A DNA stretch of 64,000 nucleotides from Raillietiella orientalis (Eukaryota), in the NCBI GenBank assembly GCA_036172245.1, contig JAYWIR010000007.1, forward strand, positions 2,108,001 through 2,172,000, given 5' to 3'. Shown piece by piece: positions 11,174 through 57,300 of the stretch. Numbering within the stretch: the first letter of the stretch is position 1; each line of letters starts with the position of its first letter. The translations under genes and the position numbers were made by a program. The notes below the pieces were generated by a model. It saw only the letters and a program-made list of their open reading frames with translations. It was not told the DNA's origin and made no database searches.

Positions 11174-11280
11174 CAATAAAATGGAAAAACATATTAACAG
11201 TTTCCTTATGGAGACAGTGGAATTATCACAGATTTCATTTCATATCACAAAATCCAAGGGATTGTCAGGAAAATAACTTC

Positions 11281-27300: not shown

Positions 27301-30300
27301 GTCGAGTCGCCCCTCTTCACCGTCTGGTTCCGGAACTTGATCTCAAACTGGGGGGGCGCTGTTGCGCCGGCGGCGCGCGTCAGCGAGGAGGGGCGCGAAG
27401 GCAATGCCTCACCTTGGACGGTCACCATGACCACCGCGCTGAGCCCTGCTCCTATGCCGTTCGTCGCCTCGCACAGGTAGTAGCCCTCGTGGGACTTCTG
27501 GATGTTGTAGATCAGGAGGGTACCGTCCTCCTGTATCTTCACGCTGCGCTCGTCGGTCTTGAGCTCCCGGTAGTCGGTGGGCGTCGATCCTGTCCCGGGA
27601 AAAAAATGGGGGAGTGGGGGAGGGGAGAAAAACTCCTTCCAGAGTAAGGGCGGGGGTGCCAACTCACCGAAGGCTTTCTTCCAGCTGATGGAAGGCTTCG
27701 GGAAGCCGTCGGCCTTGCACTCGATCTTCGCTTCCTTGCCCACGCCGTAGGCAGAGTCCTTGGGCTCGATCACCCAGCGGGGAGGAACTACGAAACGACG
27801 GCACCCGGTTAGCAAAGCGAGCAGCGACTCTGGGAGCAGGCAGAGGAGAGGGCGATGGAAGATCATGCAAGAGGAAGAAGGAGAAAGCCATGCAAAAAGA
27901 GGAGAAGGAGGAAAAGCCATGTGAGGAGGTCGTGCATTTCCTCCTCCGTCAAGCAGCAGAGGCTCCAACCAGCTCCTCCTCTGCGCATTCTAGAAGAGTG
28001 GAGGCGGAAGAGGGGCCTACCACACTGCGCATGCTCTTTTTCGGAGCGCTCCGAGACGGTGAGCGGCTGCCACCAAGGGGACAGGCGGGGGGCAGCCCCT
28101 CTCCCTTTCACCTTCATCCGTCTCGGAACTCTCCTGCCGAAGGAGGCACATGCAGACAGGAGAGATGCTGGCATGCAAGCGGCGTGCATGGGAGGGAAGG
28201 GGTTGGGGGTGGGATAACTCGACGAGGAGCGCTGGATGGTGGCGGGGAAAAAAGGGGAAGGAGGAGGAAGGTTGGTGGACGACGAGATCCCTAGAAACGG
28301 CGCTCTGCAGCTTTCCCGGAGCAGCCGCCACCTTTCCCTACATCCTTGGACGGCGACTTGCACGCGCGTGCCACTTCCTTACCAACGCCGATTCGCCACT
28401 CGCAGACCCCCGCGTCGCTGTAAGCACTCCTCCATCCTCCACCCCGGGACGGCAGCAGCTTTGCGCGCTGCTCGCAGGTACGGCACGAGGACCGAGGGAG
28501 GAAGAGAGGAGTGCGTCCCCCCCCCCCCCCGACAGAGGACGGAGGATGCGTCGTTGGGACACGAAAGCGCCTCGAGATTTCTGGGAACCTGTTCTGGAGA
28601 GCTCGGGACGCAGCCCTGCCAATCGCAAGGGCAGGAGGAAGGGCGCATCCGCCTTCCGTGCTTTTTTGCTTTCGCTGGCTGGGGTTCCGGAAGGGAGGGA
28701 GTTTGTGTCCGTCCCGAATGGCAGCGGAGATCCCGGGATGCAGGAAAACTCGGCACGGCGAAGGCCGACAGGTGGCAAGAGGGTCACACGTTTTGCTTAC
28801 GGGGTTCTGCAGGGAGCCTCTGCTCGTGGCAAAGAAAAAACGGCCGAAGGTAGGGAGTCCACCCATCCTCCCTTCCCATCACCCCTGAGCTCCAAACCAA
28901 GCAGCCTGCGACAGGAAAAAGGGAACGTTCCTGCTATTAGGGGGCTTGCCGCCATTTCATCCCCGAGATCACGCACGATGCTCCGTCCCCTTCACCCTGG
29001 CGGACCTCCCAGCTCTGGGAAAGCGCCCGTCGGACATCGCACATCCTCCCTCTCTCTGCCCAGATCCCAACCCCATCCTCCTCTTCCCTGTTTGGTCTTT
29101 TCACGAAAGAACCTTCCCAACTCTATCATTCTCCTAAAAGACTCACACCACACAAAGGAAGCCGCGAGAAGTGCGGGAGGAAACCACATGGAAACTGCCC
29201 CGAATGAGAACCAACCGGGAAGGAGAAAGGGAGGAAGAAGGAAGGGGAAAGGAGAAGGAAAGAGGACAAAAGCAAGAAGAGGTGGTAGCAGTGAAGGAAA
29301 GATAGAGGATAAAGAAGAGAAGCAAGAAGGTGAAAAGAAAGGGAGGAGAGAGGGAAGAAGAGGACAACCAGGACGAGAAGGAAAAAAAAAAAGGGCGAAC
29401 AGGAAGAGTACCAGAAGAGAAGGAAACGCCTTTCTCAGAAGGGCTTGTCCGGTCCGGTATTGGGGGCAGCATTCCTCCGCGACTCCCTGCATCCGCCGCG
29501 CCAGTGGGTGAAGGGCAAAAGAAGCAGCGACACGGGTAGGGCGAGCAGGCAGCTCCCGAGGGAGTGGCGGGACGGGAGGGAGGGAGAGAGGTCCCGATAA
29601 CGCCGGCGTACCGTGGACCAGCAGCTCCGTGGAGAAGGATGTTTCCCCAGCCTCGTTCCTGGCGGAGCACGTGTACAGCCCGCTGTGCCCCAGACCGACG
29701 CTGTCCAGGACGAGCGTGCTGCTCCTCTTACTGGTCCTGCTCGTGTGGATTCCCATCTGCGTCGACACATTCTCTCCGTGGAAAGTCCAGGATATCGAAA
29801 GGGGCAGGTCGCCTTCCGGGATCAGGCAGGTGAGCTGGGCGAAACTTCCCGGGGTCCAGAGCGCTTCACCGAAGGTGAAGGGGATAATCTTCGGAGGAAC
29901 TAGGCACAACGGTTTCCGTTAGTTCCCGGGACCTCGGAGGGAGGAGACCAAAAGACGGGGAGGGGAAGAAAAAAAAAAAAAAGCAAACGGAGGGAGGGGG
30001 AGAACTCGGTATCGCGTCCGTTCGCGGCGTGCGCCGGCCACCCTGCTCTCTCCCAGTTGCTCTCTCGTCTCGCAAGGACGGGAAGGAGGGGGGAAGGAGG
30101 AAGTATCGAGGCGACCCTTCGCGAGGGGGTGACGGGGTGCAAGAGGGGGAAGGGGCGGGGCTCCTGCAGACCGTTCACTCGCAGCTCGGCCGTGTAGTTG
30201 CTCGACCCGGCGGTGTTCTCCGCGGCGCACGTGTAGTTGCCGGCGTGAAAGGAGGCCACGTCCTCGATGCTGAGTATGGTGATGCCGCTGCCGATCCTGT

Positions 30301-33300
30301 GGGTCTTCACTCCTCGCTGGGCGCTGAGCTCCTTCCCGTGGAATGTCCACCACAGCTTCAAGGGGGGGTCCCCCGTCACGGTCACACACTGCAGGCTTGC
30401 GAGCGCCCCCTCCAGGAGGGGCTGCGGGCCGAAGGAGAAGGGCAGGATTTTGGGAGGAACTGAAAATCAAGACGCCCAACGTGACCCTCAGCCGGTCTGC
30501 CGCCGCTGCATCCCGCGCGCGCGCCTCTTCCGAAGAACTCCCTCCTGCGTCCAGCTCCGAGTCTCTTCTTCCTCGCTCCGGATGCTTGCCCGGGAGTCGC
30601 GGGTGAACGGCACGCCCTCTTCCTTCCCTCCCCTCCCCCACTTTCCTCACGCCCCAATTATCAACGTTCTGAGCTCCGGGAAGGTTTTCCTCGAGAGGGA
30701 GAAACAGGGATCAGATCGTGGCACGCACACACACAGGAAGGGAGGGGGAAGCGCACGCATCCCCCCATTCAGGAGGGGACGCCAGGTACCGTTCACGACC
30801 AGCCGCGCGGTGTACTCGGCTGTTCCCGCGCCGTTGGCGGCCGTGCACGTGTAGTTCCCCGAGTGCTCCGGGCGCACGGCGTCTATGGAGAGGGCGCTTA
30901 TCCGAGATCCGTGTTTCGCAGTGGAGACGCCCCGGTTCGACTGCGGCCCCACGCTGTGGAACGTCCAGGACATCTGCAAGGGGAGGTCTCCCAGGGCGAC
31001 CACGCACTGCAGGCTGGCGAGGGCTCCTTCCAGGAGCGGCTCCGCCCCGAACGTGAAGGGCAGGATCTCCGGAGGCACTACGGGAGGAAGACCAGGAGGA
31101 AGGGTAGGAAGGCGCCGGCTGAAGGAGGAGGCGAGTTGACTGGCGCCGATCTCCTTCCGGCTCTCCTCCGAGGAAGACGGGAGGGATGCCGCTAGGGTTC
31201 CCTTCTCCTTACATCTCCCCCTTTCCTCAGCTCTGGAGAGCGGCTCTCTAGAAACCGAAAGGGAGGCAGAAGAACTGCCGAGACAACCAGGACGGAGATG
31301 CTCCCCAAGGGCCGAAGAGGAGAAAGAGACGCAGGAGGGAGCGCTTGCACGCTTTCGGGAGGGGAAGGAGCAATCGTTCCACCTTCTCCGGTCCCAATGG
31401 CCAGAGTCCCCCGTTTGTCGAGGGAGCGTCCGGTCCCCTCCACGCAGCCAGGGAAGCGGGAAGGACAGGGGGAGGGGTGTTGAAGAGGAGGAGGCAGGAA
31501 AGCAGGAGAACACGAGGGACGGTGAGAGGGTGGGTCGAAGCAGGCGGGGGACATTTTCAGGACACGGGAGAGGGGAGGGGGAGGAGTAGAAGGAAGGGAG
31601 GGCGTGGTGGGGGTGGAGGGGTTACCGTTGATGATGAGCTCCGCCGTCCGGTTGGCGGCGCCGAAGCGGTTGCGCGCCAGGCAGGTGTAATTCCCCGCGT
31701 GGAAGGGCTTCAGGTAGTCGATGACCAGTAGGCTGGCCCTGCTCCCGAACTTTTGGGTCGACACGCCCGAGCTGGACGAAATGTTTTCCCCGTGCAGGCT
31801 CCAGGTGATCTGGACCGGCAGGTCTCCTTTGGAGACGACACACTGGACCTGCACGAAGGCCCCGACGTTCTCCTGCTTCCCGAAAGAGAACGGCACGATT
31901 TCGGGAACATCTGGAAGCAGCAGCACCGCCCAACGCTTTTTTTTTTGCTTTTCTTTTTCTTTCCCCTTCCTGGAAGAAACGCGCACGCGCCGGCGGCAGC
32001 GAAAAAGAAAGGAGGCGACCCGTTCGCCACGCGCACCCTTTTCGAACCTTGAGAGGTGGTGGCGGTGGTGGTGGTCGTTGGACGGCGAGGAAGGGGGGGA
32101 AGGGGAAGGAAAGGCGAGGAAAGGGCACTGCCGGAAGGGAGGGAGGGAGGAGAAAGGTCAGCTGTGGCTGGCACCGGCACGGGTTACCGTTGACCGTGAG
32201 CTCCGCCGTGTGGTTCGCCGACCCCACGGAGTTGCGGGCGACGCACGTGTAGTTCCCCGTGTGGGTGGATTCGAGCCTGTCGATGGACAGGATGCTGGAC
32301 CGGTCGCCGAGTCTGGTCACGCGGATGCCGGGATCCGACGCCACCTCCCTCCCGTGCACCGTCCAACTGACGACCAGGGGCAGGTCGCCCTTGGGGACGA
32401 TGCACTGCACCTGGGCCAGGATGCCCACGTCGAGGGCGTGGTTCCCGAAGCTGAACGGGGTGATCTGCGGCAGGTCTAAAAAAAGGTCACCAGCGCGGTT
32501 CGTGAAGAGCGTCCGATGAACCCTCCGCCGCTGCTCGTGGAGGCAGCGAGGATGAGACTGCGGCGGAGATCCCGGAACGACATCCGCTCGCACGCGCCCC
32601 GGGCGCATCTCAGAGGAAGAGAAGAAAGGGAGGGAGAGACGCAGGACGCCTCGACTCCCCTCCTGGGTCTTTCGAGCAGGCGGGAAGAAAAGGAATATGG
32701 CTGTTCGCACCGCCCCTCCCTCCTCCCCAGCCAAATTGCAATGCCCGCCGGCTCCAACGGTACGCGCTGCCTCCCTCCTCCTCCTCCTCCATCGTCGCCT
32801 TCCTCTTTTCTTTCCCTTCCGATCAACCACTGGTGCTGCCTCGACCGCGCAGGGGGACTGAACAAGCCCGAGGGAGGAGAGGAAGGGGAAGGGCAGGCCC
32901 ACGGAGGGAAAGAGAGCGGGGAGCAGGAGCGGGGGGAAGATGCGAAAGAAGCAGGAGCGGGGCTGGGCAGCCGTTTACTTGTAACCGTGAGCTCGGCAGA
33001 AAAGTTGGCCGTGCCGAAGCCGTTGGTCGCCGTGCACGTGTACACCCCGGCGTTGGAGAGCTGCACGTGATCGATCAGCAGCAGGCTGGTCCTGATGCCG
33101 GCCTTCATGGTCTTCGTGCCGGCGTACGAGGCGGAGTTCTGTCCGTAGAAAGACCAGCGGATCTCGATGGGCACGTCTCCCTTGGGGACGTGGCAGGTGA
33201 CCTGCGTGCTGTCTCCGGAATGCACGGGAACGTCGAACGAAAAGGGAGCGATGTGCGGAGGAACTTGCCATGAAATGAGAGGCGAGGTGAGCCTGGAGGC

Positions 33301-39300: not shown

Positions 39301-42300
39301 CGTGGGCAGTGTCAGCGCACGCGTCTTCGAGCGCTCTCCCTCTCTCTTTCTCTCCCCCTCCGAGAAACGGGCGGGGGTCGTGTGGCGGGGAGAACGTGTG
39401 CCCCGCAACAATTGCATGGGGGCTGGCGGCGGACCCCGGAAGGTCGCATTCCTTCTCGGGGTCGCGTTTCCTGGTATTTCCTGCGGGAGCGCGCGCGTCG
39501 CGGAGATGACGAATCGACGCATGCGCTAAGAGTCCGAGCCGCCTTCGTCGTCCTGCTCGGAGTCGAAAGGAACGGCTCTCCTCCATCCATCCAACCCGAC
39601 GTCTCCCGCTGCTGAAGGGGTGCGGGGGGAGGGGAGGGCAAAAACTGGCAGCCCTGCCTGCGATGATGTCTTCCCGCCACAACGGTTTCCTGTAAGCTGG
39701 GGCGAAGACTGGCCGAAGACGTGCAAAGCTCGAGTCCAGGAAGGGGATATAGGATGTTTTGGAGAGGGAAAAGGGGAGAACAGGACTGTCTGATTCTTGA
39801 AATTCCCTTTTTTGTTTTTCTCGTTGGAGAATACTCACAGGAAGGCAGGGGCCGGGTAGCCATGAGCGTGGCACACGAGTTGCGCCGCGCCTCCCTTACA
39901 GAACTCACGGAAAAGAAAGCTCTCCCCACTTACGAGTGGACTCACCCTTCCAGCTGGCTCTACAGAAGGGAACGGACATGAAAAATGAACGTGGTGGTAA
40001 GAGGAGGGGGAAGGGGAGGGGGGGCACTGCCAAGCAGCGTGCCAAGCAGATCATTCCGGCATCCTTCCGAAGACACTCAAGAGATGGCGCTACGGGAGCT
40101 GTACCTAGTCGAAGGTCTCGGGTTCGCTTGGATATCGCACACGAGGGAAACATCTTTGGATTTCTCTGCCCGGGACCGGGACAGATCACTTCCCGTGATT
40201 GCGGGAGCCGTCTCGATTTTAGATTCTGGCGGAGAAGCAAAGAAAAGGTTGTTGTTGGTTCTGCTGTTGGAATCTGCCACAGACTCGAGGCGAGCCTGAC
40301 TGCTGGGACGCGCACGTGTGCTCGCGACGGGTTTCCCGCGCGCACACCAATCCGGAAGAGGGGGGAGGGACACTTCCGGTGTCCGGTGCGGATGCTTAGC
40401 TCTCGAGCTAGGGACGAGCAAACGGAGCAGCAGCAGCAGCAGCAGCAGCCAGCTACACGCCCTCCTTCTCCCCCCTTCCCCCTCCAAACTTGGACCGCAG
40501 GAATGTAAGAGCGACTTCTCGCAGCTGCCCGAATCTCGACCTTCCATTATCATCGAAAAGGGTTCTTAATTTCCAGAAGAACGGCAGGGATGGCTCTTGC
40601 GCCGAGGTCAGTCAAAGCTCCTACCACGGACGGAAAGCACGGAGGGATGCACGAACGCTGTGAATACGGAGGCTGCGCAGCACACTGCTGCCACCGCGCA
40701 CAAAAAAGATGCAGAATCCTCTTTCATCATAGCATCGGTGTGCATCTTTAATTCCACATGTGCGATGGCAGAAACTGGGCCGAGTGGCGGAGAATAAAGG
40801 GGTGGGAGGGAATTCCTTGTCAGTTTGCATGCATGCAATTGCTCCAAGTCTCCCACAAACCCACCTGCACGCTGCTCGTTCGGTCGCATGGCAGCAGCAG
40901 CGAGCGCCCGGTGGCACCCCACGCGCCGCATGACCGGGGATCTGGCAGCCTCGCGTGACACGCCGCTCACCCGGGTTTTCCAGAAAGCCCCCACCTACGA
41001 TTTGGCGGCGGGGCGTCCTTCAAGATTTACGCAAACCCGCGCTCGCTCTGTGAGAGAGCGCCATCTCCGAGCAGGCGCACGAAGTAAGACTCGCCCGCTC
41101 GGGACCGCGGCCTCTCCCTGATTCCTCCTCCACCCTAGCGAGACTGTCGACATCGTCGCTTCGATCCCACGCGACGGTCATCGGGTTACAGCCTCCGCCC
41201 CCAACTGAGGGGACGGGGGAAGGAGAGAAGGAGGAGGGAAATCGCGCCTTCGCAGGTCTGCCTCCCCCAGCAGGTTCCCCCGTTCCCGTTCGGACGCTGC
41301 CGGGATCGAACGATTCCTTCTCCTGAAAAGCCAAGGGGCGGACGACCTGATTCCCGGATCGTTCGACAGCGGGAACGAACAGCGCGACGACACATGGGGC
41401 GGGGATCGAATGGGAACGATAGCGCCTACCCAAGAGGGAATTCAGGCTCAACGAACTCTCCAGAGCGAGGGAGTAGCGGCGGCTGCGTGCCGGCAAGAAG
41501 CTTCCCCGGACGACGCGCATGCGCGCGCGCGGAAGGGACGGGGGTTTTTCCGAACAGCGAATCACCACCCCCTGCGACCCTCATCCTCCTGCACGCGCCC
41601 CGACTCTTCCCGCAGGCGACCGCAACCTCCCCCCTCTCCCGTGTCGCAAACGGCCGATGGCGCGCGCTGCTGTACTTCGCAGGAGGGACTCCGGCGCGCA
41701 CACGGGAGAGAAGAGGGGAGCGCCGTGTCCGGGAGATTCCAGGCGGCTGCCGAGGACAGAGGTGCGGGGGGGGGGGGGAAGTTCGCCTCCCCACGTGATT
41801 GCTCTCCGGACGGGAAGGGAGCGGGCGCCGAGAAGAGAAAGGTCGGGGGCGGAGGGGTCAGCTGAGCTCGCTCTGAACCCCTCCCCCCTTTTCCTCGAGC
41901 AACGTCCGAGGCAACGGGGGTGAAAGGTGGGGGGTGAGTGGCGGCGAACCACCAACAACTGACAGCGCCGCCTGCATCGCCCTCTTCAGCGGCGGCGTTG
42001 GCCTGGCGAGGTAAGGAGGGGGGTCAAGTGGATAGGAGAGAAGCGAGGACGGCCAGCCATCTCCGGTGGCGACTCCTCACTCCGAATGGGAGGAAAGAGT
42101 GGGGGTGAGACTGCGGAAACTCCCCTCCCCTCCCCCTTCCTTTTCCGCTGTCCGCTCCGGAAGCAGCTGTGGGTACCTAGACGCCGGCGGCGGGAAGCCT
42201 GTGACGTCACACAGCATCGTCGAGGCTCCGCCGTGGCCCGTGTGCACGATCCGGCCGCCCTCAAACCGGTCCCCAGAGCGCCTCGGAGGGACGTCGCCCA

Positions 42301-45300
42301 CGGGAACTGGAAATCAAAGTGCACACCCATCACCAGTAGCACCACCCCCTCGGGTTTACCTGAATGTCGGGACGGGGGACCCGCTCACGGCGCACGAGAG
42401 GCACGCGACGGACCTCTCCCCGGCGGCAACGATCTCACCTCCGTGATAACGCTTGCCGGGGGACCTCGGTGCTACGCTCGACCCCGGGTCTGCAATTCAG
42501 TGGGAACATAGTTGCGGTTGCTCTCGGAAAAGAAGAGCGTCCGCAGGGAGGTGAGAATAGGGGTAGGGGAGGGGGAAGGGGGAGAAACCGTGGAAACCAC
42601 CGACGGCCCGCACGCAAGGAGGAAAAAATAATAATAATAAACGGGCCGGCCAGAAGAGGGGAAAAAAGGAGGAGCAGCGGCGGCGGCGGCGGCGGCGGCA
42701 GAGGCAGCAATGGGTCGGCGCTTTGGAAGGAGGACGGCAGTGGATTCTCCCCCACCCCAGCCCGTCCGCTTCCCTGCGGCGCCAGTTCTTCGAGGTCGAC
42801 AGGGTCCCTCCCGCCTTCCAGCACCGTCCGGGTGGAACGAAGAACCGAATGAAGAGGAGTGGAGCGGACGGGACAGACAGAGAGAGGGAGAGACCTGAAT
42901 GTGGGCGCGGGGAGTCCCGTGACGCCACAGATCAAGTTGGCAGCCTCACGGACGGTGGCCTTGATGAGGATGCCGCCCTCCGCACGCAGCCCGACGTACG
43001 TCGGGGCGACCGTCCCAACGGGCCCTGCAAATGGACACCACAGGTCAGAGGCTCACGAGAGGCGCGGCGGTCAGCGCGGAGGACAGGGGCAGATCCTTGA
43101 TCTCTCCACCCCCCCCCCCTCCCCTCCCCTCCCCTCCCGTCCCGCAAAGCGCCCTCAGGAACAGGAGCAAAAAGGGGGAAGGGACGGGGGCGGGGGAGAG
43201 AGGGAAACTGAGTGGACTTGCGGGTCGGAGGAACCGCGACAGCCAACGACCCACGAGCCGGGAGGTGACGTCCCGGCTGCCAGGGAAGGAAAGGGGGGGG
43301 GAGGAGGAGTGCACGTGACGCGGCAGAGGGGGACACGCTAGCGTGAAATAGGGGCGGGAAAATGGGGATGGAACTGTGTGTCTACGGCAGGCGGTGGCTC
43401 GGCTGGAGTTTTTTGCCCCCCCCTCCCCCCCCCGGCAAACCGAGAGCCCAAAAGCAGGAAGAGGGGGAGCTCTCTCCAAGGGATGCCTCGCGGCCCTCGA
43501 GACCGGAAGATAGGAGGAAGAGGAGGAGACGGCGACGGGAGCCTCCTCCAGACAGAGGGACAGCAGGTGAAGGAGCAGATCGATCTCGCTCTCCCCTCTC
43601 TGGGCCAGCGACTTGCGGACCACCGCCACCAGAGTCAGACTTTCTAGGAGTTGGAAAAGGGCTCGGGAGACGCCTCCGGGGCCAGAGGTCGGCCCCGAAA
43701 CCTGCGAGGTCGGCCCTCGGCAGGAGCTGTCCCGACCGTCCCTCATGAGCAGGTGGTGCGCTCATGTGATCTCGTCTCAGTAAGTCTCGTTCGTCCCCAC
43801 TCCCACCCCTCCCGATGGCTCTTCCCGGATTCGCGACGTATGGGAAAGCCGCCCAACTCGGGGCGAGATCGCGCGTTCCCCTTCATCCCGCCTCCCCAGG
43901 CGTCCGCATGCATCCGAGCTGAGGGCGCGTACGGCAGGAGGGGGAGTAGGCGAGCAGCGATGTGGGCACTCGGGCGGCCGCCCACCCCGGCGAGGCGGGA
44001 GCGCCGGTTCCGGATAATTCCCCGCACGAAGCGCAAGGAAAGGGGGAGGGGCAGGGGTTCCCCCGCCGAAAACGGTCCTCCTGCGAAGGGGGTGAGACCA
44101 CTTCCTCTCCCGAAGCGGCTAGAAGGGGAGGAGAAGGCGGACGGGGGGAGAGAGAGAGCCGCCGGCCCCCATCCCTCCAGGAAGGGCCTCCGTTCCCGAG
44201 ACCCGCGCGCGCGCGCCGCTCCGCCCGCTGCGTTTACCTTTGCTCGGGAACCGGAAAACCCTGCACCTGACACACCAGGGACGCCGGTCGGGTCACCCCC
44301 GCAGTCTTGCGAACGTTCGCAATCTCCACGTCTTTCGACCTTGGGACCACGCTCGACGAGGGCGCTGCGGTGGACAAACTTCAGATGAGCAGGGGCGGAG
44401 AGCGGAGGACGGGGGGAGGACACACGCGCGCGCGCGCATGCCCCGCCCTCCGAGCGCACGCCTAGCGCTTTCGGGAGAACCACCTCTTCTCTCGTTCCTC
44501 CCGATGATCCGGGAGGCATGCAGGACCCTTCCTCCTCTTCCCCCTCTCCTCCTTGCCACTCTCGGCGGCACTCGGCCGCACGGCGCCATCCACCAGGGTC
44601 CGTGCCTCCTGGTGACGGAGTAGGAAACCCACGATTCGGGAGCAGCACTCACGCGCACGTCCGAGCAACGGGAATGGGGCAAGGGGGAGAGGAATGAATC
44701 TTTAGGGTTGGGCGGGGGGTCGACGCGTTGTCGCCCCTCTTTTGCCGTCCTGCGGCCGCGGTCCGGTTCGACTACCAGCGTGGCGCCGCCTCGCTGAACT
44801 CGGTCCAAACCCGACAACGCACGTGGCCCCGGGAACCCTTCGCACAGAAACGGCGGACGGTGTGCGCCAACCCTTCCAGCCGCCACGATCGTCGCGCCCT
44901 CTGACGTCGATTCCCTGGGGCTTCGCCTCCCGGTTGCAAACAGCAGCAACAGCAGCAATACGTTCGGAGGACACGCTTCCGGGAGACCTTGGGTGAGCAC
45001 CGACACAGTTCCACGGTTGCTTCCAACTCCAAACTGCTCCCCTTCCCTTCCCTTTCTCTCACCCTCTTTTCCCCCTTCGTCCCAAAGGGTAAGAAGGGAT
45101 GAAGGTGGGCGGAGTAGCAAAGCCGAAACACGAAAAGGGGCTCCCCGGTGGGGAAGGGCGCGTGCCAACCGCTTTGCTGGCACCCGGCACGCATGCGCGC
45201 CGTCAGCTGCCCCCTCCTCGGCGCAGGGGGTCTCGCCCTTTTTTTTTTTTTCCCCACCTGCGGACGCTCGTTCGTTTTCGGGCGAGTGCCGCACTAACTG

Positions 45301-48300
45301 CGCACGCCCAGCGCTTCCTAGCAACGTGTCTCCTCTCCGCCCACGGCGGCGACCGCGCGCACGTCCGCTTCCTTCGCAACGCCGCGACGAAAGCCCTTGA
45401 TCTCCTCTCACCCCCTTCTCACCCTTCCCCATACCTGGTTTCGGGCACAGGGTACCCCTGAGCCCGGCACACAAGCGCTAAGGAAAGATCAGCACGTGCG
45501 AGGCGACCTTCGATAATCACCCCATCGATCAAGCGGGGAGGAACGGTGCTCATGGGTTCTGCAAAGAAGAGAAGAGATGAAGTGCGACGGACCTGTGGCT
45601 AGGCGCTGGGAAACCGCGGGCAGCACACGGCAGCGCCGCATGGAGCCCTCGCACGGCAGCTGTCCTTTCATACTTTTCGTCCTCGGTCAGACTGGGCGGT
45701 AGCAGCGAGATAGGAACTGAAGAACAGAGAGAGCACGTGGTTGCTTAGGTGTCGGTGGCCGGTGCCTCAAGGGCCGCGACGACCTCCCCCAGAGGAGTTC
45801 GCTTTACGGGATTTCTCGACGGCTGCAAGGAGGTTCCCGTCCGAACCGTCGCGGTTTGAGATGCGCTAACGGGACTCCCGAACAATTCTTCGCCGGGCGC
45901 GAAGGACGCACATCGCGCTGGGACTCTGGACGAAGATCCTCCCTTCCTCCTCCCTTTTCCACCAGCTAGCTGTCCATCCCTTCTCTCTCCCTCGAGCCGC
46001 AATCCGCAACGACGCCACTGAGAACTCGCGCACGGAAAGCTCGTCGGTCGCATTCGCGTTTGCACTCCGGAGTGCTTAGACTCCAGCGGGACGTAGGTGC
46101 CGCTGCTCGCGCCCAAAAACGAGGGGAACGAGCGGATTTCCCAGTGGGCCGCACACATGCGCGCGCCATTCCAGCATCCTGGCCGGCCGCGCGCCGAAGA
46201 CTTCGCTTTCCTCCGCCGTTGTCGTCCTTCTCAGCTCACCTGTCCTTCCTGCATGGAGACGGTCAGGAGATAAGAAAATCGAGGCGGCAGCTTCCGCCTC
46301 GCAACGCCGCCGTCCGCCGCTGCCATCCCCATCCCCACTGCAACAATCGGAAGGAACGAGGAAATCTTAATTGCCGAGTATTTCCGATTGTTTCCCGGAA
46401 TTTTCATTGTTGCGTTTTGGACTTTCAACAATCGCTGATTTTCAACAATGCGCTCCCCCGTGGTCGCGGATTGGCCCGGAAGACTTGCGGTTGCCGCGAC
46501 TTCGCTCTCCCGCTGCTAACCGAGCGAAACCCGCATTTCCGCATCGGCCTTCTTATCTGCGGAACGCATGCTGTTGTGTTTTGTATTTCTTGTTGTTTTG
46601 CTCGCTCTGCACCCCTTCCCGGCATGGACGCATCATCGTCCTGAATAAGCAGAAAGGGAGGGGGAGGGGAGCGGAAACAACGTTTAGAGTCCCACCACGA
46701 CATTCTCTCCCTCGAGCCGCTTCTCGCACTGTCGGCGGAGTTCCAGCCTCGCCTCCATAGAGATTCGCGGAGCAAATTTATACAGAGTACGCTACTTGCA
46801 ATCCACTTCTGCTTCCGTACAGTCCATGCCCACCCCTCGTTATCTATCGCTTCGTACGTCTGACTCACGTGTGTGTAATTACGGTACTGCATCCTACATC
46901 TTGCATCCTCGGTTTCCTCGCGTACCTACGTAGGTGTGTACCAGTGCGAACAAGTCCGTTTAGTCAACACGAATTTCACAGTACAACAACAACAACAAGA
47001 AGAAGAAAACACGCGAAAGAAGCGGGAAGAATTTTTTCTTGCGGCGAGGGGTTGCTACGTAATTTCTTCCTTCAGGAATTCCGGGTTCCTTCAGGAATAA
47101 ACCTGGAATTCGCAAAAGGGCCCGAACCTCTACCTACGCTGTAAAACTGGTTGCTAGGGACGCAAAGCGTGGTGGTAATTGGGGGGGGGGGGGAACAGTG
47201 AGCCGAAAGGGAGAGGGGAAAAAAAGTGGGGGTCGTCGCGAAGACCGCGATGAAAGTGGAAAGTACTGGCACCGTGGGACGAACGGAGAGAGAGAGTGAG
47301 AAGAACGCGTCAAGAGGGATGCGCGAATCGCTGTTATGGCGACGGGTCCGGATGCGCGCCCGTCTCGACAGGAGCCGCCCCTCTCGGAATGTCGCTGCCG
47401 CCGTCGCCGCCGTTTCACGCACGTGTGCCGTGGCCGTCGTTCGCGCGCGCGCCACTCCCAGCTCGCGCGATCCCACGGCCGGATTTGCGCAAATACTCCC
47501 CAGCCGGGCGCGCGGAGATGCCTTCTGCCACCGTCGCTGCATCCGGGTCCGAGGGGGACGCCGCCACAGTCGCGGGACACGCACGTGCTCGCGAGGGCCC
47601 CCGCCCTCTTCTCGCAGTGGGGGACAAGTGTCGAGTGGCAAGACCCCCTCCTCCCCTCCCGGGCAGCTCGCCCGGGGCGCTCCACAAGGGCTGCCTCCAC
47701 AGCCTCCGAACGAGCGCAGCGGAAGGAGCTGAACTTCCACGGGACTGATGCCCTGCGTCGACGCGAGCGTGCGAGACACGATCGTGGCTCGAGGGCAAAC
47801 GCGAGAGCGAAAGGAAAGATGAGGGCGGGAGAGAGAGAGTTTGTCCGCGGGGGGAGGGGGCCGCAGGACCCTCTGGAGACGACGGCGCGCACATCCTGCA
47901 CCTCGGGATGCCGTAGAGACAAGCACGGGAGGCCCCGGGGCTGCAAGCCGTTCGCTCTGGGGTGGGAGGCCGCAGTGACGGCTAAAAGGCGAGGGCCGAG
48001 ATTAACCGGAGAACACGGTGCGATTGAAGGAGGAGAGAGGAGGGGAGGCTAACCGAGCGTCGTCGTCGTCACCCGGGAAACGGACCGCGGCAGGAAGCGC
48101 ACTCTCCGATAAAGAACGCCGCAGCAGCGAAACGGAAGCTGAGGGGACCTGGTTCGAGGGAAGAGGGGGGGGGGGATGGAAGCGATGAGAAACCGGAACT
48201 TAAGTTTTGGCAGCCCGCGCCCCCTTTTCACTTTCGATCCCTCCCCCCCCCCCTCCTTTTTTGTTTTTTTTTTTCGTTTCCGCTGTTCTTTCTCTTCCGC

Positions 48301-51300
48301 GCGAGATGTAGCGAGCTCTGACGTCATCGAGCACCTCAACTTCATCGCGCGGCGGCGCCACACCACCGGGACGCTCGGGGACGGCAGGCTCCCGAAGCGG
48401 CTTTTTGGAGCTTCGATTATCCGGGATGGCTCGGGAGAGGGAAAACGCAGGAGAGCCCTACATCAACGCTAACCGAGAAGGAGGAGTTCGTGCTTCCTGC
48501 ATCCTGGCAGCAGTGGGGAGGCGCTCTACTCAGGAAGGGAGTGCGTCGTCACGAGGATCTCACCAAGGGCGCGATGGACGAATTCCGTTTGCAATCAGAG
48601 GGGCGAACACGAAGGAGGGGGGAAGAGGGAAGGAAAGGGGGAAGCTCAGCGAGAGGTCGGTTCTCTCACGGGACGCGGTCGCCGATGCTGTCCTCCCGCA
48701 GCTCGAAACCACGCAGCTGCTGCTGGCGCGCCAGGCCGTCGGCCCCCGTCCTTTCCTGCCTTTGGGGTGGGAACGCATCTGCATGGGCACGCCAAACGCG
48801 CCAAAGAGAGGGCGGGAGCGGGGGAGCTGCGCGCACCTTCTCACATCCAGGAAACGACGAGCCCCCCCTCCCGCCCCTCTTTCTCCCCTTCATGGAAAAC
48901 AAACGGCCCAAACAATGGGATGGTCGAGAGGCCCGTCGCCTTTTCCCTTCCCTCCCTCGGCAAAAGAAGCGCGTAAGTCCTCCCCTTCATCCTTCGCGCG
49001 TGCGACCTTCCTTTCCTTTTTTTACCTTGCAGTAGGAGCGGGAAACGCTTGGATATCGCACGTCATGACCGCGGCGTGGGCCGACCTACTGGTCAGTTTG
49101 GTCCCTATGGACGACGTGTCCTTAAGGGCGGGAGGAACGTCTGTTCGGGGCACTGCAAGAAGAGAGCAAAACAGGAAGATTCGGGTCAGCAGGCCGGGGT
49201 CGGCGGAGGAGCCTCGGGGCCTCCGGGTTGGAGCAGGCTGCGGAGCTCATCATAGGACTCCTCACTCCCCCCCTACCGTTCCCTGTTCGAGAGGAATTGG
49301 CAGGTCGGCAGCTCGCTCGCCCGCCTGGGATCAACCCTGCCCCCCCCCCCCCCTCCCTCTTTCCCTCCTGGTGCGGATGTCGGGGAAGCTGGACGATCAG
49401 AGCGAAGTCAAAGGGGCCGTAGGCGGGGAGGCGAGGGAGCGCCAGCAGGAAGGACACGCGGAGGGGGGTGGGGCGGGCGCGTGACCTTTTCCCGTTTTCA
49501 GATACTCGCCGAAACGGGCGATACTAGGTCAGGACCACTCTCGCCGCTAGTCCGCGGGCGCCCCTCCCCCGGTCCCCAGAGCCACGCATGCCCGGGATTC
49601 CCACTTTTCCGAAGAGATGTGTGAGGGTTGGGGGAGGGGAGGAGCAGCCGTGGACACCGGCTTCCTCGTGCACGGTGCCTCAGAACTCCACCATCCCGTA
49701 TTGCCCGGGTAACTCGAAGCGAAGGGGAACGGTCCCCCTCCCTCCCTCCCTCCCTTCAGGGGTGTTCGAACGGCGCGCCCGAGGCGAAAAAAAGGGGAGA
49801 AAGGTAGGGGACGAGGGAGACGCTGGTCCTAGGGCTGCGCTCCCGAGAGGGACGCAGCGGCCCCGCCCCTGGTCTGAAAAAAGGAAGGAGAGCGCAGGCG
49901 TGCGTGTGGTGGGAGAGTACCCCGGTACCTCCTCCTCCCCCCCTCTTCTCTCACTGCCCGAGCCGTCGAGCCAGGAACGGTCGGGGATCGGCAGCATCCG
50001 GGTGCGAGGGAGGACGAGGATGGGGGAAGATCGCGGCCAAACGGTAGCAGCCCTTAAAGCCATCTCCTGGGGGCAGACGGGAGGCGCAGGAGGGGGAGAA
50101 AACGCGGCTGGGAGGAGGGCGCGCCAGCTTTCTGGGATGCGTTGGGAGCGGCTCGTAAAAAGGAAAAAAAAAAAAAAAATAGGTGTGGTACCTACCTAAA
50201 ATAGGGCGCCGGGTGCGCCTGAATTTCGCACAAGATTAGCGCGAGTTCGCCCGAGGTCACATCGATGTACCTCATCACCGCTTCGGGCACTTTGGGGGCG
50301 ACGTCGCTTAGCGGCTCTGGAACACCACAGGCAACCTCAAGGGACGGACGTCCCGCCCCCGGGTCGTCCCGCTCGCTGCGTGGTCCGGGGGACGCGGGCA
50401 GGTCAGGTGGCTGAAGCTCTCTCCGCCCGCCCTTTACCGGGATGGCGCGCATCTCGCGACGGGGGAGGGAGGGACGGGGCGGGCAAGGGCACGTCGTCTT
50501 CGCGGGAGGAGCTCGCTTAGAAACCGGCGGTAGAGGCGGGAAGGAAGAAGGGGAGGGAATGCGCCGCGGACCTCCCCCTCCCCTCCCAGGTTCACCGCGC
50601 GGCGGTCAGGCGGCCGGCCCGTACCTGGATTGGGGCGCGGGATGTCCCTGCGCTCGGCACAGGAGCGCCAAGGAAGGGCCCGCGCGTGCGTAGCGACCCT
50701 CGGAGACCACCCCGTCCAGGAAGCGGGGAGGGACGGTGCTCAGGGGTTCTGCAAAGAACAGAAGAGGTGAACGGGAACGGACCTGCGTCCGGGCGCCGGG
50801 AAAGCGGGCGCCGCGCAGGGCAGCGTCGCGTGGAGTCCTCGCGCGGCCACCATCCTCGCGAACCTCTCGTTCTCGGCCAGCCTGGGCGGCGCGGGCGCCA
50901 GCGGAACTGGGGGGAACACAAGAGGTCACGCCGCCGCCGCAGCGACCGGGGACGGCGAGAAGGCGCTCCCCGCCTTCGACTCGAGGGAGCGAAAGGGAGG
51001 GGAGGAGGACACGCGCGCCTGGGAACGGGAACATATGGGGTCGCGGGCAGCTGACCCTCCCCGCCGCCGCCGCCGCTGCTGCTGCTGCACCCGCTCGCTT
51101 TCGCTGACATCTAGCGGGAGGGGATGGAGGGGCGGGGGTGGTGTGGGGGAAGCGAAGACGGCCGCGTCCCAACATTCAGGCTGATCGTCACTTGTTGCGC
51201 AGGTGCGCGGAGGGGTCACAGCGCACCCCCAGTTGCATGCCTGCGCACGTCGCGCGGTTGCCCGCCGGGCGTTTTTCCCCAGAAGCTACGCCGTGGCGGC

Positions 51301-54300
51301 AGGGATGGGGGGGGGGAGGGGTAAGAGAGACTTCGGGTTGCCCGGGAGGATACATGTGTCCCTGACGGGTCACTTTGCTCCCTCGCCCTTTTTCTCTCCC
51401 CCGCCGGAAATCACCACGGCAACCGATGGCGCACGTTCCGGCGGACGCCCGGCGGCGGCACGCGAGCAAGCACAAAGCAGCGCCCTGGAGTGCGGGTGGC
51501 CGAATTCCCTTCGGTAGTGCGGGAAGGGAAAGGGGAGGAAGAAAAACGGAAGAGTGAGATGCGGCGCCGATCGCCTCTCCCCGGGAGTCCCCCCCCCCCT
51601 TTCCCCTCCTCCTCTTCCTCCTCCTTCATACGCACCTCCCGCCGCCGAGTTCCCGCCACACATCGCCGGCGGGATTCCCGCCGAGATGAGGGGGCGGCAG
51701 GGGCGCGCACGGATCGGGGGAGGGGAGAAGAGCTCGCTCGCCCCTGATCCCTCCTCCCCCTCCCATCCCCGTCTCCCGCACGTCCTGTCTCCCCTCCGAG
51801 AGGGCGGAAAGGGGGACGTTGCTCCCTGTCGCGAAGGTCGCTGCCACCAGGGAGAGAGATCGGGGAAGGGACGAGAGGCCGTTGCCGGGGGTGGGGTGGG
51901 GGAGGAGAAGGAGGCTCAAGCAAACAGCCAAGCAGCCGGGAGCGTCCACGAAAAATGGGACGCAGACAGAGACATTTCTAGGACCTCAGGGCAACCGGGA
52001 AAGCGCTTTCCCCGAAGGGGGCGCGAGCAGCCCCAGGGGCAGCGAAGGAGGCCAGGCGAAGGCGAGGGAGGGCGGAGGAGCTCTTCGGGAGGTGGCCCTG
52101 AAGGGATCCGCTGGGAAGGAGGTTCAGGGCTTTCCAAAGAGGCAGGAAAAGGGCACCAGGAAGGATACGTGTGGAAGGAATGTGGAGGGGGAAGGGTCCC
52201 GAGAAGGGGGACGGGCAGGAGAAAGGGTGCAAAGGGAGGATGAAGGGGAAGTCGTCGCCCGGCATCGCCTCCTGGTCGCCTTCCGCCTGGCGTTCGACAG
52301 GGAGCGGAGGAGCGAACGCTCCTGCGGGGTGTAGTAAAGGGAGGGAAGGGCATGGATTCGCTCCTCCAGGACCCCGAGCCACTGGAGCAGCGGCTCCGGG
52401 AGCCAGAGAAAAACAAGGGGCTGCGCCGAGGTGGGGTGAAGAGGAGGAGGAGAGGTCAGTCCCGAGAACTCCGAGAGCGAGATCAGCCTCCCATGGAGGG
52501 TCTTCGCCTCCCATGGAGGGTCCGGACACCCCCCATCCACTCAGCCCGCCTGCGAAGGGAATTCGGCCATCCGCACGAGAGGAGGCGGAAAAAAAAAAAA
52601 AAAAAAAGAAGGAAGGAAAGGGACGCGTACCTGTGACCACCAGCTTGCCCGCGGTGGCGCTGAGACGGGTCTCCCCGGTCAGCTTGTGCACTGTCCGGCA
52701 CCGGAAGGACTTGTTTCCGTCTTCCAGGGTGACGTCACGTATGTAGAGTTCTCCGGAGGGGAGCACCAGGTACTTGCTGTCTGGAAAAAAAAAAAGAGAC
52801 GTCGATAGGTGTTGACGGACGGCCTCGGAGGAGGACGGGAGGGGGGGGGGAAGGGGGAGGAGAGGGGAAGGGGGAGGGGAGGGAGAAGGAAGCAACATAC
52901 GCACGCACGCACGCACGCACCCTGTCCCGCGCGCTTCTCTTCTCGCTTCTGCACAGACAAGCGTATTCGCATGCGGGCTGTCCCCGGGTCAACGTCCCCC
53001 CCCCCCACCCCCTTTCTTTTTTCCCCTGAGTCTAAAAAGGGGAGGCCACGGAGAAAGGGTGAAAAGGCGGTTGGTTACGGCGGAACGCACGGCCATCACG
53101 AGGAGCGCGAAGGCATCTGAATTGTTTCCGCCGGCCTTCGCCCGTTCTCTGTCGGTCCCCCCCTCCCCCCTCCTCCGGTCGGGAGGATGCGCGCACTCCT
53201 CCATTTGTTCCCCGTTTCCGCCTTCTTCCTTCTCTTCCTCCCGCGCTTCCCTTCCTCCTTGACGGCTGTTGAGCCACCTCCTTGGGGAAGGAGGGAAGGG
53301 GGTGGGTGAGGAAGGACGCGGACGAGCGAGCCCGCGGCGCAACCGCCCCGCGGCCTCGCCTCCGCCCCACGCGCGCAGAGCGCCCTCTTGTGGCCACTGC
53401 AGTCTGTCCACGCGCCGCCGCTATGCCCGGGAAGCAGAGGAGGAGGAGGAGGACGGAAGGGGAGCGAAAGAGACGCGGGGAAGGAGCTACGCACGGACGG
53501 AGTTCCTTCGGGGGCGTGATTTTTCGGTTTGCCCCGTGGCCGGTTCGTCCAGCCGCCACCTCCCTTCCGGGAAGAGGATCCCTGAAGGGAAATTTTCGAG
53601 AGACCCTCTGGAGGAAGGGGGGGGGGGGCGGGCGGGATTGCCGCCGCGCTTCCTCAGGACGACGAGGAAGGGGATCGGAGGGACCGCTCCTAGTGGAACG
53701 GAGAAGTCGGGCGAAGCCTTAAAAAAAAAAAAAAAAAAAAAAAAAGACCGCACGCACGCACGCACGCACAGCATTCATGCCGCCCACGCGAAGTGAGGGG
53801 GGGGGGGGAAGCGGGGCGATGGATGCCGGAAATCTCGGATTCCGAGGTCGCCTTGTCGGATTTCCGCCGCTTCAGGGTGAGTCCCTTCCGGCGCCTCTTC
53901 CAGGTCATCGCGCTCGGGCGCGAGGGCGTCCGGAGGAAGGCGGAGGAGCCCCAGGGCGCGCGGCCGCAAGGTCGGATGTGCGGGGAGGAAGGACCCCGCT
54001 TTCCTCCGGGAGGGAGCCGGCAGCGGCGAGGGGGAGGGGGAGGGGAGACGTCGGCGGCTCTTCCCCTCTCCCGCCATGGGGAAAGGCGCTCCTCACTGGC
54101 GCGCCTCCCCGACCCCTCTCCGCTTTCCCTTTGCTGTCGCGTGCGAGTGGTGCGCACACGACTGCCCTATGCGACGCGGGTGCGGGAGCTGGGCGACGGG
54201 CGGAGCCTCCTTGCCGCGCGTCGCGTCCTTCCTACGATCTGGAGCGGTCCACCCGCCGACACGCGTCTCCCCATCCGCCACCCGTGTACTGTGCATCTCT

Positions 54301-57300
54301 TCCCTTCCCCTCCCCCGGGGACCAACCGCTTCCCCCCTTTCCGCCGCGAGCGGTGCAGCGTGGTCAAGAAGCCAACCAGTCGGTATCTCCTCCTCCTTGG
54401 GTCCGCTCCATTACCGTAGCTAAGGTCCGCATAAATGACCTTTCGGTCGCCCTGCAGCCAAGAGGTGACCCCGGTGAAATCCGACACGAAGCTGGGCACG
54501 TGACACTTGAACACGGCTGCGTTGCCCAGCAGCACGAACTCGTCGAGCACGTTCGGCTGGTAAAACTGCGCAACCACTAGAAACCAAAACGACCATCATC
54601 AGCACAGCACCAGCGCCAGCGCGCGATACTGTCGCCGCAGGGAGGGCGCGGTGCCGCACCCTCCCCCCTTCTGCCGAAGTCGCTCCCGCGGAGAGCCGCC
54701 GGCTTAGAGCCTCCTCCTCCCGCCTCGTCCGACCTTTTCCTGTTTCCGAGGAGGGGAAAGTCGCCTCTCCCCTCCTTGGTACTTCCTGAAGATGCGGAGG
54801 GGTGGGGTGTGTGGGGTAGGGTGGGGATAGGGTGGGTAGGCGACACCGGAGGCGCGCCTCGTCCGAGCTCCCTAGCCTGCCCGTCCGACCTTCCCCCCTA
54901 CCGGTCGGAGAGCGATCTCTTCGCCGGACCGCGGCCGCCGCCGGCGGGGAAGACGACGAGGCTCCCCGTGCGCGCCAACTCACGAGCGGGCTGTGCGGGG
55001 TGCCACTGCGTGCTGCCGCCGTCATTCCTCCCCCTCCCCCCACCCCATGCGCCCTTTGGTGTCAGGAAGGGAAGGCAAGGGATGGAAGAGGGAGGGAGAG
55101 ATCGGGTCGCAACGGCGCAGGCACTCTGCCCTCCTCCCCCCCCTCAACATGAGGGTGTGCATTGGGAGAGGGGGAGGGGGGTCAGTACCGAAATCGGCCC
55201 TCCGGTAAAAGGCCTCTCCGTTGGGAGTCTCCCACGCCTGGACCGCGACGGCGTCTTGAGCAAAGGACGGCAAGATGCAGCGCAGCACGCCGACGTTCCC
55301 TCTGAGCACGAATTCGTCATTGACCCGCGTCTCGTACGATTGGTACACGACTGCAAGTACACAAGAGAGGTGGACTGGGGTGAGTTACCGTGGAAGGACG
55401 CGGGGTAGTAGGTCTCCTGGTCACCATCCACCCAGTCCGTCACGCCGACAAAATCGACTACGAAACTCGGGATCAAGCATTTCAGCAGGGCGGAATTGCC
55501 GGAGAGCACGACCTCGTCAATGACCCTGGTCAGGTAATGCTGGAATACCACTGGAAAGGGAGGAAACCACCAGGTTTGAGAGAGGTGCGGACTGAGCGCA
55601 CAAGACCGGCCTGCCCATCTCTTCTGCCTCGCGAGCGAAGATACAGAACTGAGAGGGGTGGGTAGAGCCTGGCGGGAGACGAGGGGCGAGGGGGGGGGGG
55701 ACCCAGGGGCGCGGCCGCACAGACGAAGCTGAGCAGAGAGAGAGAGGAGGGAAAAGGCAGAAGAAGGTGCAGGGGGCGCCTGGGTGCGTGCGTGGCGCGC
55801 GGGCCTCTCTGCCATCCCTCCTCAACACGACCAATCTTTTACCGTGGTCCTTGGAATCTGGATAATAGAAACCGCCGCTGGAATCTTCCCACGAGTGGAG
55901 GAGCACGAAATCCGCCACGAAGCTGGGAATCTCGCATCTCAGCAAAGCGGCGTTGCCAAGAATGACGAACTCGTTGTCGGCTTCGCTCACGAAATCCTGA
56001 TCGATGACTGGGGAGACACGGGTGGTCGTTTTTTGGGCTGCAGGTGTGAACGATTCGCGCGCGACCTTTCGCCAAAGGGCTTCTGGTGAAGGGGAGGGGG
56101 GCAGGAGAAAGAAGGGAGGGGATGGAGGGCGAGAGAGGACGACAGCATCCGCACAGCAGCAGCGGCGGCAACAACAACAGCGCCACCTTCTTCTCCCTCC
56201 CTCGCCACCGTCCGCTTCCCTCCCTACCTCTCTGCAAGGAGCGAGAGCGCCGCCGCACGACGCGCGCGAGCTGTTCCGCACCACCGCTACCGACAGCCAT
56301 CGCGCCAGAGTGCCGCCGCGCCGCCACATTACCGTGCGCGAGGCCACTGGAGGTGTGGTACGTGCCGCCTGAGCTCGACTGCCACGACTGAACGCGGACG
56401 AGGTCGCTCAGGTACGAAGGGATGCTGCACTTCAGCAAGGCAGCGTTGCCGGACATCACGTACTCCGTCAGCACCTCCGCCTCGTACAACTGGGCCGACA
56501 CTGGAAAGGTGGACGGTCACGTGGTCGGTTGCAAAAGAGGAAAGGGAGCTGAGGCGGCAAGGACAGCTGCTGCTGAAGACCAGAAAGCGCCTCTCCTTCC
56601 TCGCAACACCACGTGCCAACGGCCAAGAAGCAGGTGGGGAGGGGGAAGGGAAGGGGGACCACGTGGGTGGGGAGGCAGCCGAAGAAGGGGGGGGGGGGTG
56701 AGGAAGAGGAGGAGGGAGTTTCGGAAGCCGCGAGGACGGCTCCGTCGCCAGATTTACCGTGGAGGCTCGGGCTGGGATAGAAAGCGCCGTCGGCACTGTG
56801 CCAACTTGACAGTTGGACAAAATCCGCCACGAAACTGGGAACGCTACATTTCAGGACGGCGCTATTCCCCAGGATCACGTGCTCGTTAGCGACCTCCGCC
56901 TGGTAGGACTGGGACACGACTGAAAAGACGAGACAAAACGGGAGGAGAAGGCGGAAGCGGCGGGTGGAGCAGCAGTCCTTTCAGCTTGGTTTCCCTCTCC
57001 TCGTCGTTTTCTTCTTCCTGTCCTCTTCCCCCCCTCCCTCCCCCTCCCCCGAAAGGGACCTGGGCAAACGCGCGCGGAGAGAGCTGCGCGCGCCCGCCGG
57101 ATTCCCAAAGGAGATCGACGGGCAGAGGGAGGAGCAGGGGGGAGGGGAGAAGGAAGGAGGGGAGAGACGTCGACGGAGTGAAGGGATCACCTTGCGTCTC
57201 TCCCATAGTTACCGTAGCCGTTGCTCGCGAAGACCTGTCCTTCCTCGGTTTGCCAGCTGTGCACAGTCACGTGCTCGGCCACGAAGTTGGGGACCTGACA

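Follow-up and report, generated by a model that had tools for sequence, protein, structure and literature searches.

The closest described counterparts of the arrangement reported here are found in the Dscam exon-6 clusters of insects, in which selector sequences compete for pairing with a single docking site. In Drosophila, selectors lie on average 60-70 nt from the acceptor that they serve, and a few binding sites reach into the upstream exon (Anastassiou et al. 2006, PMC1431710); 41 of the 48 selectors of D. melanogaster are purely intronic and seven lie at a boundary (as cited in PMC8042237). Three exons of Drosophila yakuba that follow introns of 27-47 nt are without binding sites and apparently non-functional (PMC1431710). 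In Coleoptera, more than 45% of the introns in the exon-6 cluster are shorter than 50 bp, and owing to these short introns the selectors are predicted to lie mostly partly or wholly in variable exons: 26 of 28 in T. castaneum, and 11 of 25 in D. ponderosae (three of 25 wholly exonic and eight of 25 at a boundary) (Dong et al. 2021, PMC8042237).

Two further bodies of work are relevant. Balancer pairings shift the bias of exon usage and do not select the next exon (Dong et al. 2022, PMC8791459; Dong et al. 2026, PMC12962786). Ivanov and Pervouchine (2018, PMC6071210) regard selectors as copies of a single stem arm, multiplied when the exons duplicated.

Here we analyze a 64,000-nucleotide stretch of Raillietiella orientalis DNA (the window) in which the end of one exon-6 variant, exon 6.9, pairs with the docking site. 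The locus resembles that of Coleoptera in its conserved docking site and in short introns that would place the selector in the preceding variable exon, the assignments being predictions in both; it differs in that the gene is very GC-rich, that 3 of the 11 inter-exon introns of the cluster are short, that most exons are without a clear selector, and that identity to insect Dscam1 is about 70% (for one constitutive exon, among the best matches listed). With the anchor-selector system of Drosophila it shares the same 15-nt docking core and the competition of several partners for one site; the candidate selector, however, consists wholly of exon plus GU, whereas most Drosophila selectors are purely intronic, and the docking flanks differ. 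With balancers it shares a long-range pairing that joins exonic sequence in the cluster to an element in the exon 5-6.1 intron, but the published balancers employ a separate upstream element and bias usage, whereas in the present gene the docking core itself would be engaged. The duplication model, as given in PMC6071210, assumes an intronic stem arm; in the present gene, by contrast, the duplicated arm would consist of the 3' end and donor of the exon itself. A preliminary description of the window had considered the arrangement undescribed, but an exon-end selector is already known, with precedents in Drosophila (PMC1431710, 2006) and Coleoptera (PMC8042237, 2021). The passages of PMC8042237 consulted make no mention of donor masking or of an antisense relation between docking site and exon end.

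Results

The gene and its exon-6 cluster

The minus strand of the window carries a pancrustacean Dscam1-type gene, in which 12 exon-6-like exons of 121-130 nt stand in tandem between constitutive exons 5 and 7 (Table 1), with exon-4-like and exon-9-like arrays on either side of the cluster. The variants were delimited by a motif scan and a tblastn survey built from coordinates, and this survey found no exon-6 variants beyond the 12. Their numbering is identical to that of the preliminary description. In exon 6.10 the reading frame is open, and the Ig3 cysteine, the G-x-P-x-P motif and AG/GT borders are preserved. One constitutive FN3 exon matched 607 proteins at E<=0.001 among 677 candidates; the best 120 of the 607 are insect proteins, mostly labelled Dscam1 or Dscam2, with identities of at most 71%. 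On sequence similarity the assignment to the Dscam gene family is therefore certain, but the gene has no close relative in the protein database searched.

Table 1. Positions of exons, docking site and docking partners in the window
Feature	Position	Strand	Length and remarks
Exon 5, constitutive, coding part	52775-52632	minus	75-81% identity to exon 5 in 10 related loci
Extended docking region for duplex predictions	51188-51158	minus	31 nt
Docking core, 17-mer	51181-51165	minus	in exon 5-6.1 intron; 0 mismatches
Exon 6.1	50906-50783	minus	124 nt
Exon 6.2	50748-50625	minus	124 nt
Exon 6.3	50316-50196	minus	121 nt
Exon 6.4	49152-49026	minus	127 nt
Exon 6.5	45716-45593	minus	124 nt
Exon 6.6	45558-45435	minus	124 nt
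Exon 6.7	44364-44238	minus	127 nt
Exon 6.8	43024-42895	minus	130 nt
Scan partner inside exon 6.8, 5' part	43014-42983	minus	-39.6 kcal/mol, about 27 pairs; better than all 2276 background windows
Exon 6.8 3' end (APTFR) plus GU	42909-42893	minus	3 mismatches; 14/17 in register; -21.2 kcal/mol alone, -34.1 with flanks
Exon 6.9	42489-42360	minus	130 nt; open frame (...SPVPTF), Ig3 motifs, AG/GT borders
Scan partner, exon-6.9 end	42385-42357	minus	-39.0 kcal/mol; spans 6.9 donor
Candidate selector	42374-42358	minus	3'-terminal 15 nt of exon 6.9 (V-P-T-F-R codons) with donor GU
Intron 6.9-6.10	42359-42307	minus	53 nt
Exon 6.10	42306-42177	minus	130 nt; exon that the candidate selector would activate
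Scan partner, intronic	40318-40285	minus	-42.2 kcal/mol; 59 nt before exon 6.11
Intronic selector of exon 6.11, classical type	40312-40294	minus	19 nt, one mismatch; -34.2 kcal/mol alone, -42.2 with flanks
Exon 6.11	40225-40105	minus	121 nt
Exon 6.12	39959-39839	minus	121 nt
Exon 7 start	36872	minus	

The docking site

The first 15 nt of the docking core are the core of the Drosophila anchor sequence as given in a figure legend of PMC1431710. For comparison, 13 related loci were obtained as arthropod metagenome contigs fetched with the exon-5 peptide; among them are contigs that combine exon 5 with the docking core and portions of the exon-6 cluster. Exons in these loci were identified from AG...GT borders, reading frame and motifs, a simple rule under which errors are possible. 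The docking core is present, with at most three mismatches, in 7 of the 13. Five of the other six are contigs that extend no more than about 1.8 kb beyond exon 5 or stop at the exon-5 match, while in the sixth, L003, the core was not found in the available 1556 nt. Because the 15-nt core equals the Drosophila anchor and the same core recurs in related loci, the identity of the docking site is secure. The flanks of the extended docking region are species-specific and differ from those of the other loci.

Pairing of the exon-6.9 end with the docking core

The end of exon 6.9 and its donor read ...CCC GTC CCG ACA TTC AG/GTAAAC on the minus strand (42377-42354, the slash marking the junction). Compared position by position, 42374-42358 and 51181-51165 form 17 of 17 contiguous pairs, including two G-U pairs (51181 with 42358, and 51171 with 42368). 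This helix is the longest ungapped one between 51260-51100 and 51099-34000, the runner-up having 14 pairs; its energy is -30.4 kcal/mol alone and -39.0 to -40.2 kcal/mol with flanks (here and below, energies are from RNAduplex at 37 C, which ignores competing local structure). A 17-nt run was reached in none of 200 mononucleotide shuffles of the 11,068-nt cluster (the maximum was 16, once). Matches with at most three mismatches numbered three, against 0.16 and 0.18 expected, a count that none of 100 shuffles attained.

Relative to the exon 6.9 donor the helix extends from -15 to +2, so the donor is necessarily covered, and the duplex ends 51 nt from the exon 6.10 acceptor. A local fold of 42420-42280 leaves the donor region mostly unpaired, an observation that carries little weight. 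No better partner was found in the 53-nt intron: its best docking duplex reaches -17.9 kcal/mol, against -40.2 kcal/mol when the exon end is included, and the second scoring, that of the pooled-loci comparison below, gives -34.9 for the exon-6.9 end and -11.3 for the intron. The 3' end of exon 6.10 itself pairs poorly with the docking core (-14.3 kcal/mol). The exon thus stands behind a short intron and has its best docking partner across the end of the preceding exon, as in exon-located selectors. In all of this the preliminary description was borne out: it had given the 17-nt pairing with two G-U pairs, the 53-nt length of the intron to exon 6.10 (42359-42307), an intron (42307-42359) with little room for a selector of its own, and a single duplex spanning the exon 6.9 donor, of which the GU does form part of the helix.

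Other docking partners in the cluster

Between 51100 and 36000, windows of 36 nt taken in steps of 3 nt were each paired with the 31-nt docking region. The scan yielded three partners with energies below -39 kcal/mol (Table 1), the background minimum being -34.3 kcal/mol over 2276 windows elsewhere in the window. One is the exon-6.9 end. Another contains an intronic selector of the classical type, 59-68 nt upstream of the exon 6.11 acceptor, which served as an internal positive control, and the third lies within exon 6.8. All three pair with the same 51181-51165, so that their use of the docking site overlaps. The 3' end of exon 6.8 pairs as well, and is followed by a 405-nt intron. Exons 6.8 and 6.9 are identical at 65 of 130 positions and have a common last 10 nt that encodes the same residues; this likeness of the two ends is not significant alone.

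When the 200 nt upstream of each of the 12 acceptors were compared with 267 background windows, those of exon 6.10 (-40.2 kcal/mol) and exon 6.11 (-42.2 kcal/mol) alone beat every background window, and no above-background selector was found within 200 nt upstream of the other ten exons (11 to 267 of the 267 background windows being as good). Because 10 of the 12 exons are without such a selector, the docking-selector system is not demonstrably general in this gene. Six candidates for exons 6.1-6.9 and 6.12 (41113-41087, 45193-45160, 48740-48707, 50155-50121, 43982-43950 and 49562-49532) had energies of -31 to -35.5 kcal/mol, at or near the background tail (minima -34.3 and -36.0), and were not accepted. 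A decayed pseudo-exon at the exon 6.11 selector was likewise rejected: 40470-40270 holds a weak C-A-R-G-K-P-like stretch in another frame, and a tblastn match with E = 1.6 is too little.

Synonymous sites at exon ends

The preliminary description had suggested that the pairing could act as a dual-coding switch and proposed a check for excess synonymous conservation in related species. The codon-aware analysis covered 54 exon ends in 7 loci (the window and six relatives), each scored, in the same register as the exon-6.9 helix, by how many of its positions pair with the docking 17-mer of its own locus; the null consisted of synonymous codons resampled from each cluster's own usage. Over all 54 ends the observed mean was 12.46 pairs against 12.59 expected (z = -0.96), and over the 18 ends that precede introns of at most 100 nt it was 13.56 against 13.76 (z = -0.91). 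No excess of complementarity at synonymous sites was found in these paralogous exon ends, and the idea of silent sites selected for pairing is accordingly not upheld. Exon 6.9 itself has 17 of 17 pairs, where 15.07 are expected given PVPTF and the AG/GT junction, and 6.5% of resamplings reach 17 of 17 (P = 0.065). The match is clear against raw chance and weaker against the codon-constrained null.

Because observed pairing does not exceed the synonymous-resampling expectation, the complementarity is carried by the peptide (PxPxFR) and the AG/GU junction, without extra tuning at silent sites. It needs no special codon choice, since it follows from the conserved exon-end peptide and donor and comes nearly free with them. 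The null result weakens the dual-coding switch as an evolved property, and is silent on whether the helix forms.

Exon ends and intron length across loci

L001 has 19 variants separated by introns of 55-331 nt, and for 14 of its 18 downstream exons the best docking partner spans the preceding exon end and donor, intronic selectors serving three. An exon of L001 that ends in P-V-P-A-F and is followed by a 70-nt intron forms 16 of 17 pairs; in L004, an exon that ends in the same P-V-P-T-F codons as exon 6.9 and is followed by a 44-nt intron forms 15 of 17.

With the window, L001, L002, L004, L006 and L011 pooled, the preceding exon end surpassed the intron as a docking partner in all 14 cases with an intron of at most 70 nt (from the window, L001, L004 and L006), in 8 of 14 with an intron of 71-150 nt, and in 7 of 19 with an intron longer than 150 nt. 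This trend arises partly because a short intron leaves less room in which a partner could be found. Compared within loci, exon ends that precede introns of at most 70 nt pair 4.8 kcal/mol better than the rest, with 20 of 5000 stratified permutations as extreme (38 of the 47 rows entered this test, the nine L011 rows being left out as L011 is without a short intron); because paralogous exons are not independent, this figure overstates significance, and the better pairing before short introns is suggestive only.

The docking core as an antisense image of exon-6 ends

Every 17-mer of the exon 5-6.1 intron was scored for its mean complementarity to the exon-6 ends of the same locus. In 6 of 7 loci the top rank among the 455 to 4798 candidates belongs to the docking core in its exact register, with G-U pairs counted or not; in L010, where there is only one exon, the core comes fifth of 1821. 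As the loci are homologous, this counts as one conserved pattern and not as seven independent ones. Other 17-mers of the intron average 5.9-6.6 pairs with exon ends, against the docking core mean of 12.46 of 17. Read in antisense in the exon frame, the core spells V-P-T-F-R in the window, I-P-T-F-R in L001, L002, L004 and L006, V-P-A-F-R in L009 and L010, and L-P-T-F-R in L011, and ends in GC five times and in GT three times. Because of the intron-wide ranking and this in-frame reading, the docking core is, as far as its sequence goes, a mirror of the consensus exon-6 end and donor.

The suggestion of the preliminary description that the docking core may be an inverted copy of an exon-6 end is compatible with this strong cross-species pattern, in which either of the two may have arisen first. 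The mirror relation would fit an origin by inverted copying; it would fit equally a docking site that evolved to pair with what was, while introns were short, the sole constrained sequence at hand. We found no statement of this antisense-of-exon-end relation in the passages of the literature consulted.

Discussion

We favor, with a probability of roughly 0.55, the reading in which the end of exon 6.9 is the selector for exon 6.10 and also masks the donor of exon 6.9. The docking site would pair with the exon-6.9 end and its GU donor, looping out exons 6.1-6.9; the exon 6.9 donor would be buried in a 17-bp helix, and the exon 6.10 acceptor, 51 nt downstream, would be brought beside exon 5. The selector would be exon-located and of the boundary type, forced into that position by the 53-nt intron. 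Our inference is that this helix exists in vivo and that it alters the relative usage of exons 6.9 and 6.10. The reading draws on the unbroken run of 17 pairs; on the standing of exons 6.10 and 6.11 as the two whose upstream regions exceed all background windows; on the weak pairing of the intron alone; on a spacing of 51 nt to the acceptor, against 59 nt for the exon 6.11 selector and the 60-70 nt average of Drosophila; on the preference for exon ends before short introns in related loci; and on the precedents in Drosophila and Coleoptera. Less favorable to it are the ten exons that lack an above-background selector, the pairing of the exon-6.8 end in spite of its 405-nt intron, and the D. 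yakuba exons behind introns of 27-47 nt (PMC1431710).

The selector role is weakened because the pairing could be a by-product of coding, there being no synonymous excess. The exon-6.9 end would then match the docking core only through its Ig3 end peptide, P-V-P-T-F-R, and the GU, with no evolved role in the choice of exon 6.10, for which other signals may be responsible. Given nothing but the peptide and the donor, 15.07 of the 17 pairs are expected, the 54 exon ends carry no synonymous excess, and exon ends in general pair with the core far above the level of other intron 17-mers, all of which this explanation accommodates. It is harder to reconcile with the energetics, as a 17-bp helix of -30 kcal/mol with a competitively pairing element would be hard to keep without effect; with the position of the helix, at the canonical distance before exon 6.10, which has no other selector; and with the stronger pairing, within loci, of exon ends before short introns than of those before long ones. 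We consider it somewhat unlikely, though a serious contender.

A different outcome of the same pairing would be masking of the donor only: docking would silence exon 6.9, or act much like a balancer by titrating the docking site, without activating exon 6.10, which is perhaps rarely used or decaying. The span of the helix over the exon 6.9 donor suits this proposal, as do the second strong exonic partner inside exon 6.8, the known intron-exon balancer pairings that modulate exon-6 choice (PMC12962786, PMC8791459) and the D. yakuba exons behind 27-47-nt introns that look non-functional (PMC1431710). Against it, exon 6.10 retains its frame, motifs and splice borders, and balancers, in what is published of them there, use a separate upstream element and not the docking core; we judge this explanation improbable. 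A chance match unrelated to the docking system, for which one might invoke the many long helices (runs of 14) that a very GC-rich genome yields with G-U pairs, is effectively refuted by the shuffles, by three matches where 0.16-0.18 are expected, and by the recurrence of the same register in six other loci.

A possible and frankly tentative extension concerns the history of the system. Across pancrustaceans, the ultra-conserved docking site may be the antisense image of the consensus exon-6 3' end and donor, its complement spelling (V/I/L)-P-(T/A)-F-R followed by G[C/U] in the frame of the exon; an ancestral switch might have paired with, and masked, the donor of the preceding exon, the intronic selectors of the Drosophila type having come later, and exons 6.9-6.10 would then be a survival of the original mode.

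By itself, the case of exon 6.9 is one more predicted exon-embedded selector, in a lineage outside beetles and flies, and is ordinary. The cross-species result is weightier: the pairing of exon-6 ends with the docking core is a consequence of their coding content, and a codon-aware null is needed before exon-end complementarity is taken to show selection on RNA structure. That the docking core is the best antisense match in the upstream intron in 6 of 7 loci provides a testable idea of how the system started. It points, too, to a way in which the exon preceding the chosen one might have its donor silenced, the step on the side of the downstream intron that the standard model, as presented in PMC6071210, leaves unexplained.

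Predicted pairing inside exon 6.8 and at other exon-6 variants

The extended docking region, which lies in the intron between exons 5 and 6.1 of the Dscam1-type gene, could form a helix of ~27 bp (-39.6 kcal/mol) with codons close to the start of exon 6.8, one of the 12 alternative exon-6 variants, and this partner begins 10 nt past the exon 6.8 acceptor. When 36-nt background windows from elsewhere in the window were scored by RNAduplex, 2276/2276 were weaker. The internal partner could serve as a selector for exon 6.9, as a repressor of exon 6.8 itself, or as an element resembling the balancer, the published intron-exon pairing that modulates exon-6 choice.

Of all exon-6 variants, exon 6.12 has the weakest docking partner (-18.2). 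It ends in CT before its GT donor, so that the codon at its junction with exon 7 would encode Leu where Arg is usual, and it is possibly an atypical variant or one that is decaying.

The exon-intron-exon blocks 6.1/6.2 and 6.5/6.6 are duplicates, identical at 209/282 nt overall and at 28/34 nt within the intron, and both introns are probably too short for splicing. At -22.3 and -24.0, pairing of the docking core with the upstream exon ends of these two pairs is only moderate.

Coordinates of the features described
Feature	Position	Strand	Detail
Predicted docking partner within exon 6.8	42983-43014	minus	helix with 51188-51158
End of exon 6.12	39839-39845	minus	...TTC CT/GTGAGT in place of ...AG/GT
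Intron 6.1-6.2	50749-50782	minus	34 nt
Intron 6.5-6.6	45559-45592	minus	34 nt
Docking-core variant	L009 1350-1366		two changed positions
Docking-core variant	L010 11063-11079		two changed positions
Exon-4-like array	window 54170-56980	minus	at least 5 variants
Exon-9-like array	window 29800-32500	minus	several variants

Likeness of pairing elements to exon ends

Within 40270-40470 of the window (minus strand), the intronic selector for exon 6.11, read in one frame, gives V-P-A-V-R followed by GC, and immediately upstream, in a different frame, lies a weak C-A-R-G-K-P-like stretch (tblastn E = 1.6). On the basis of these two sequence features, which hint at such an origin without showing it, the selector might be what is left of the end of a dead exon. 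In two related arthropod loci that carry exon 5 and a variant docking core (L009 and L010), V-P-A-F-R, the reading of the variant's antisense, remains plausible as an exon end and is closed by a perfect GT donor.

Sequence and exon arrays around exon 6

The ORF listing (window 1-20000 compared with 20000-64000) suggests that the very GC-rich body of the Dscam gene gives way to more AT-rich sequence below ~17 kb. Both the exon-4-like and the exon-9-like arrays look small, and the number of isoforms from this gene would therefore fall far below that of Drosophila Dscam1.
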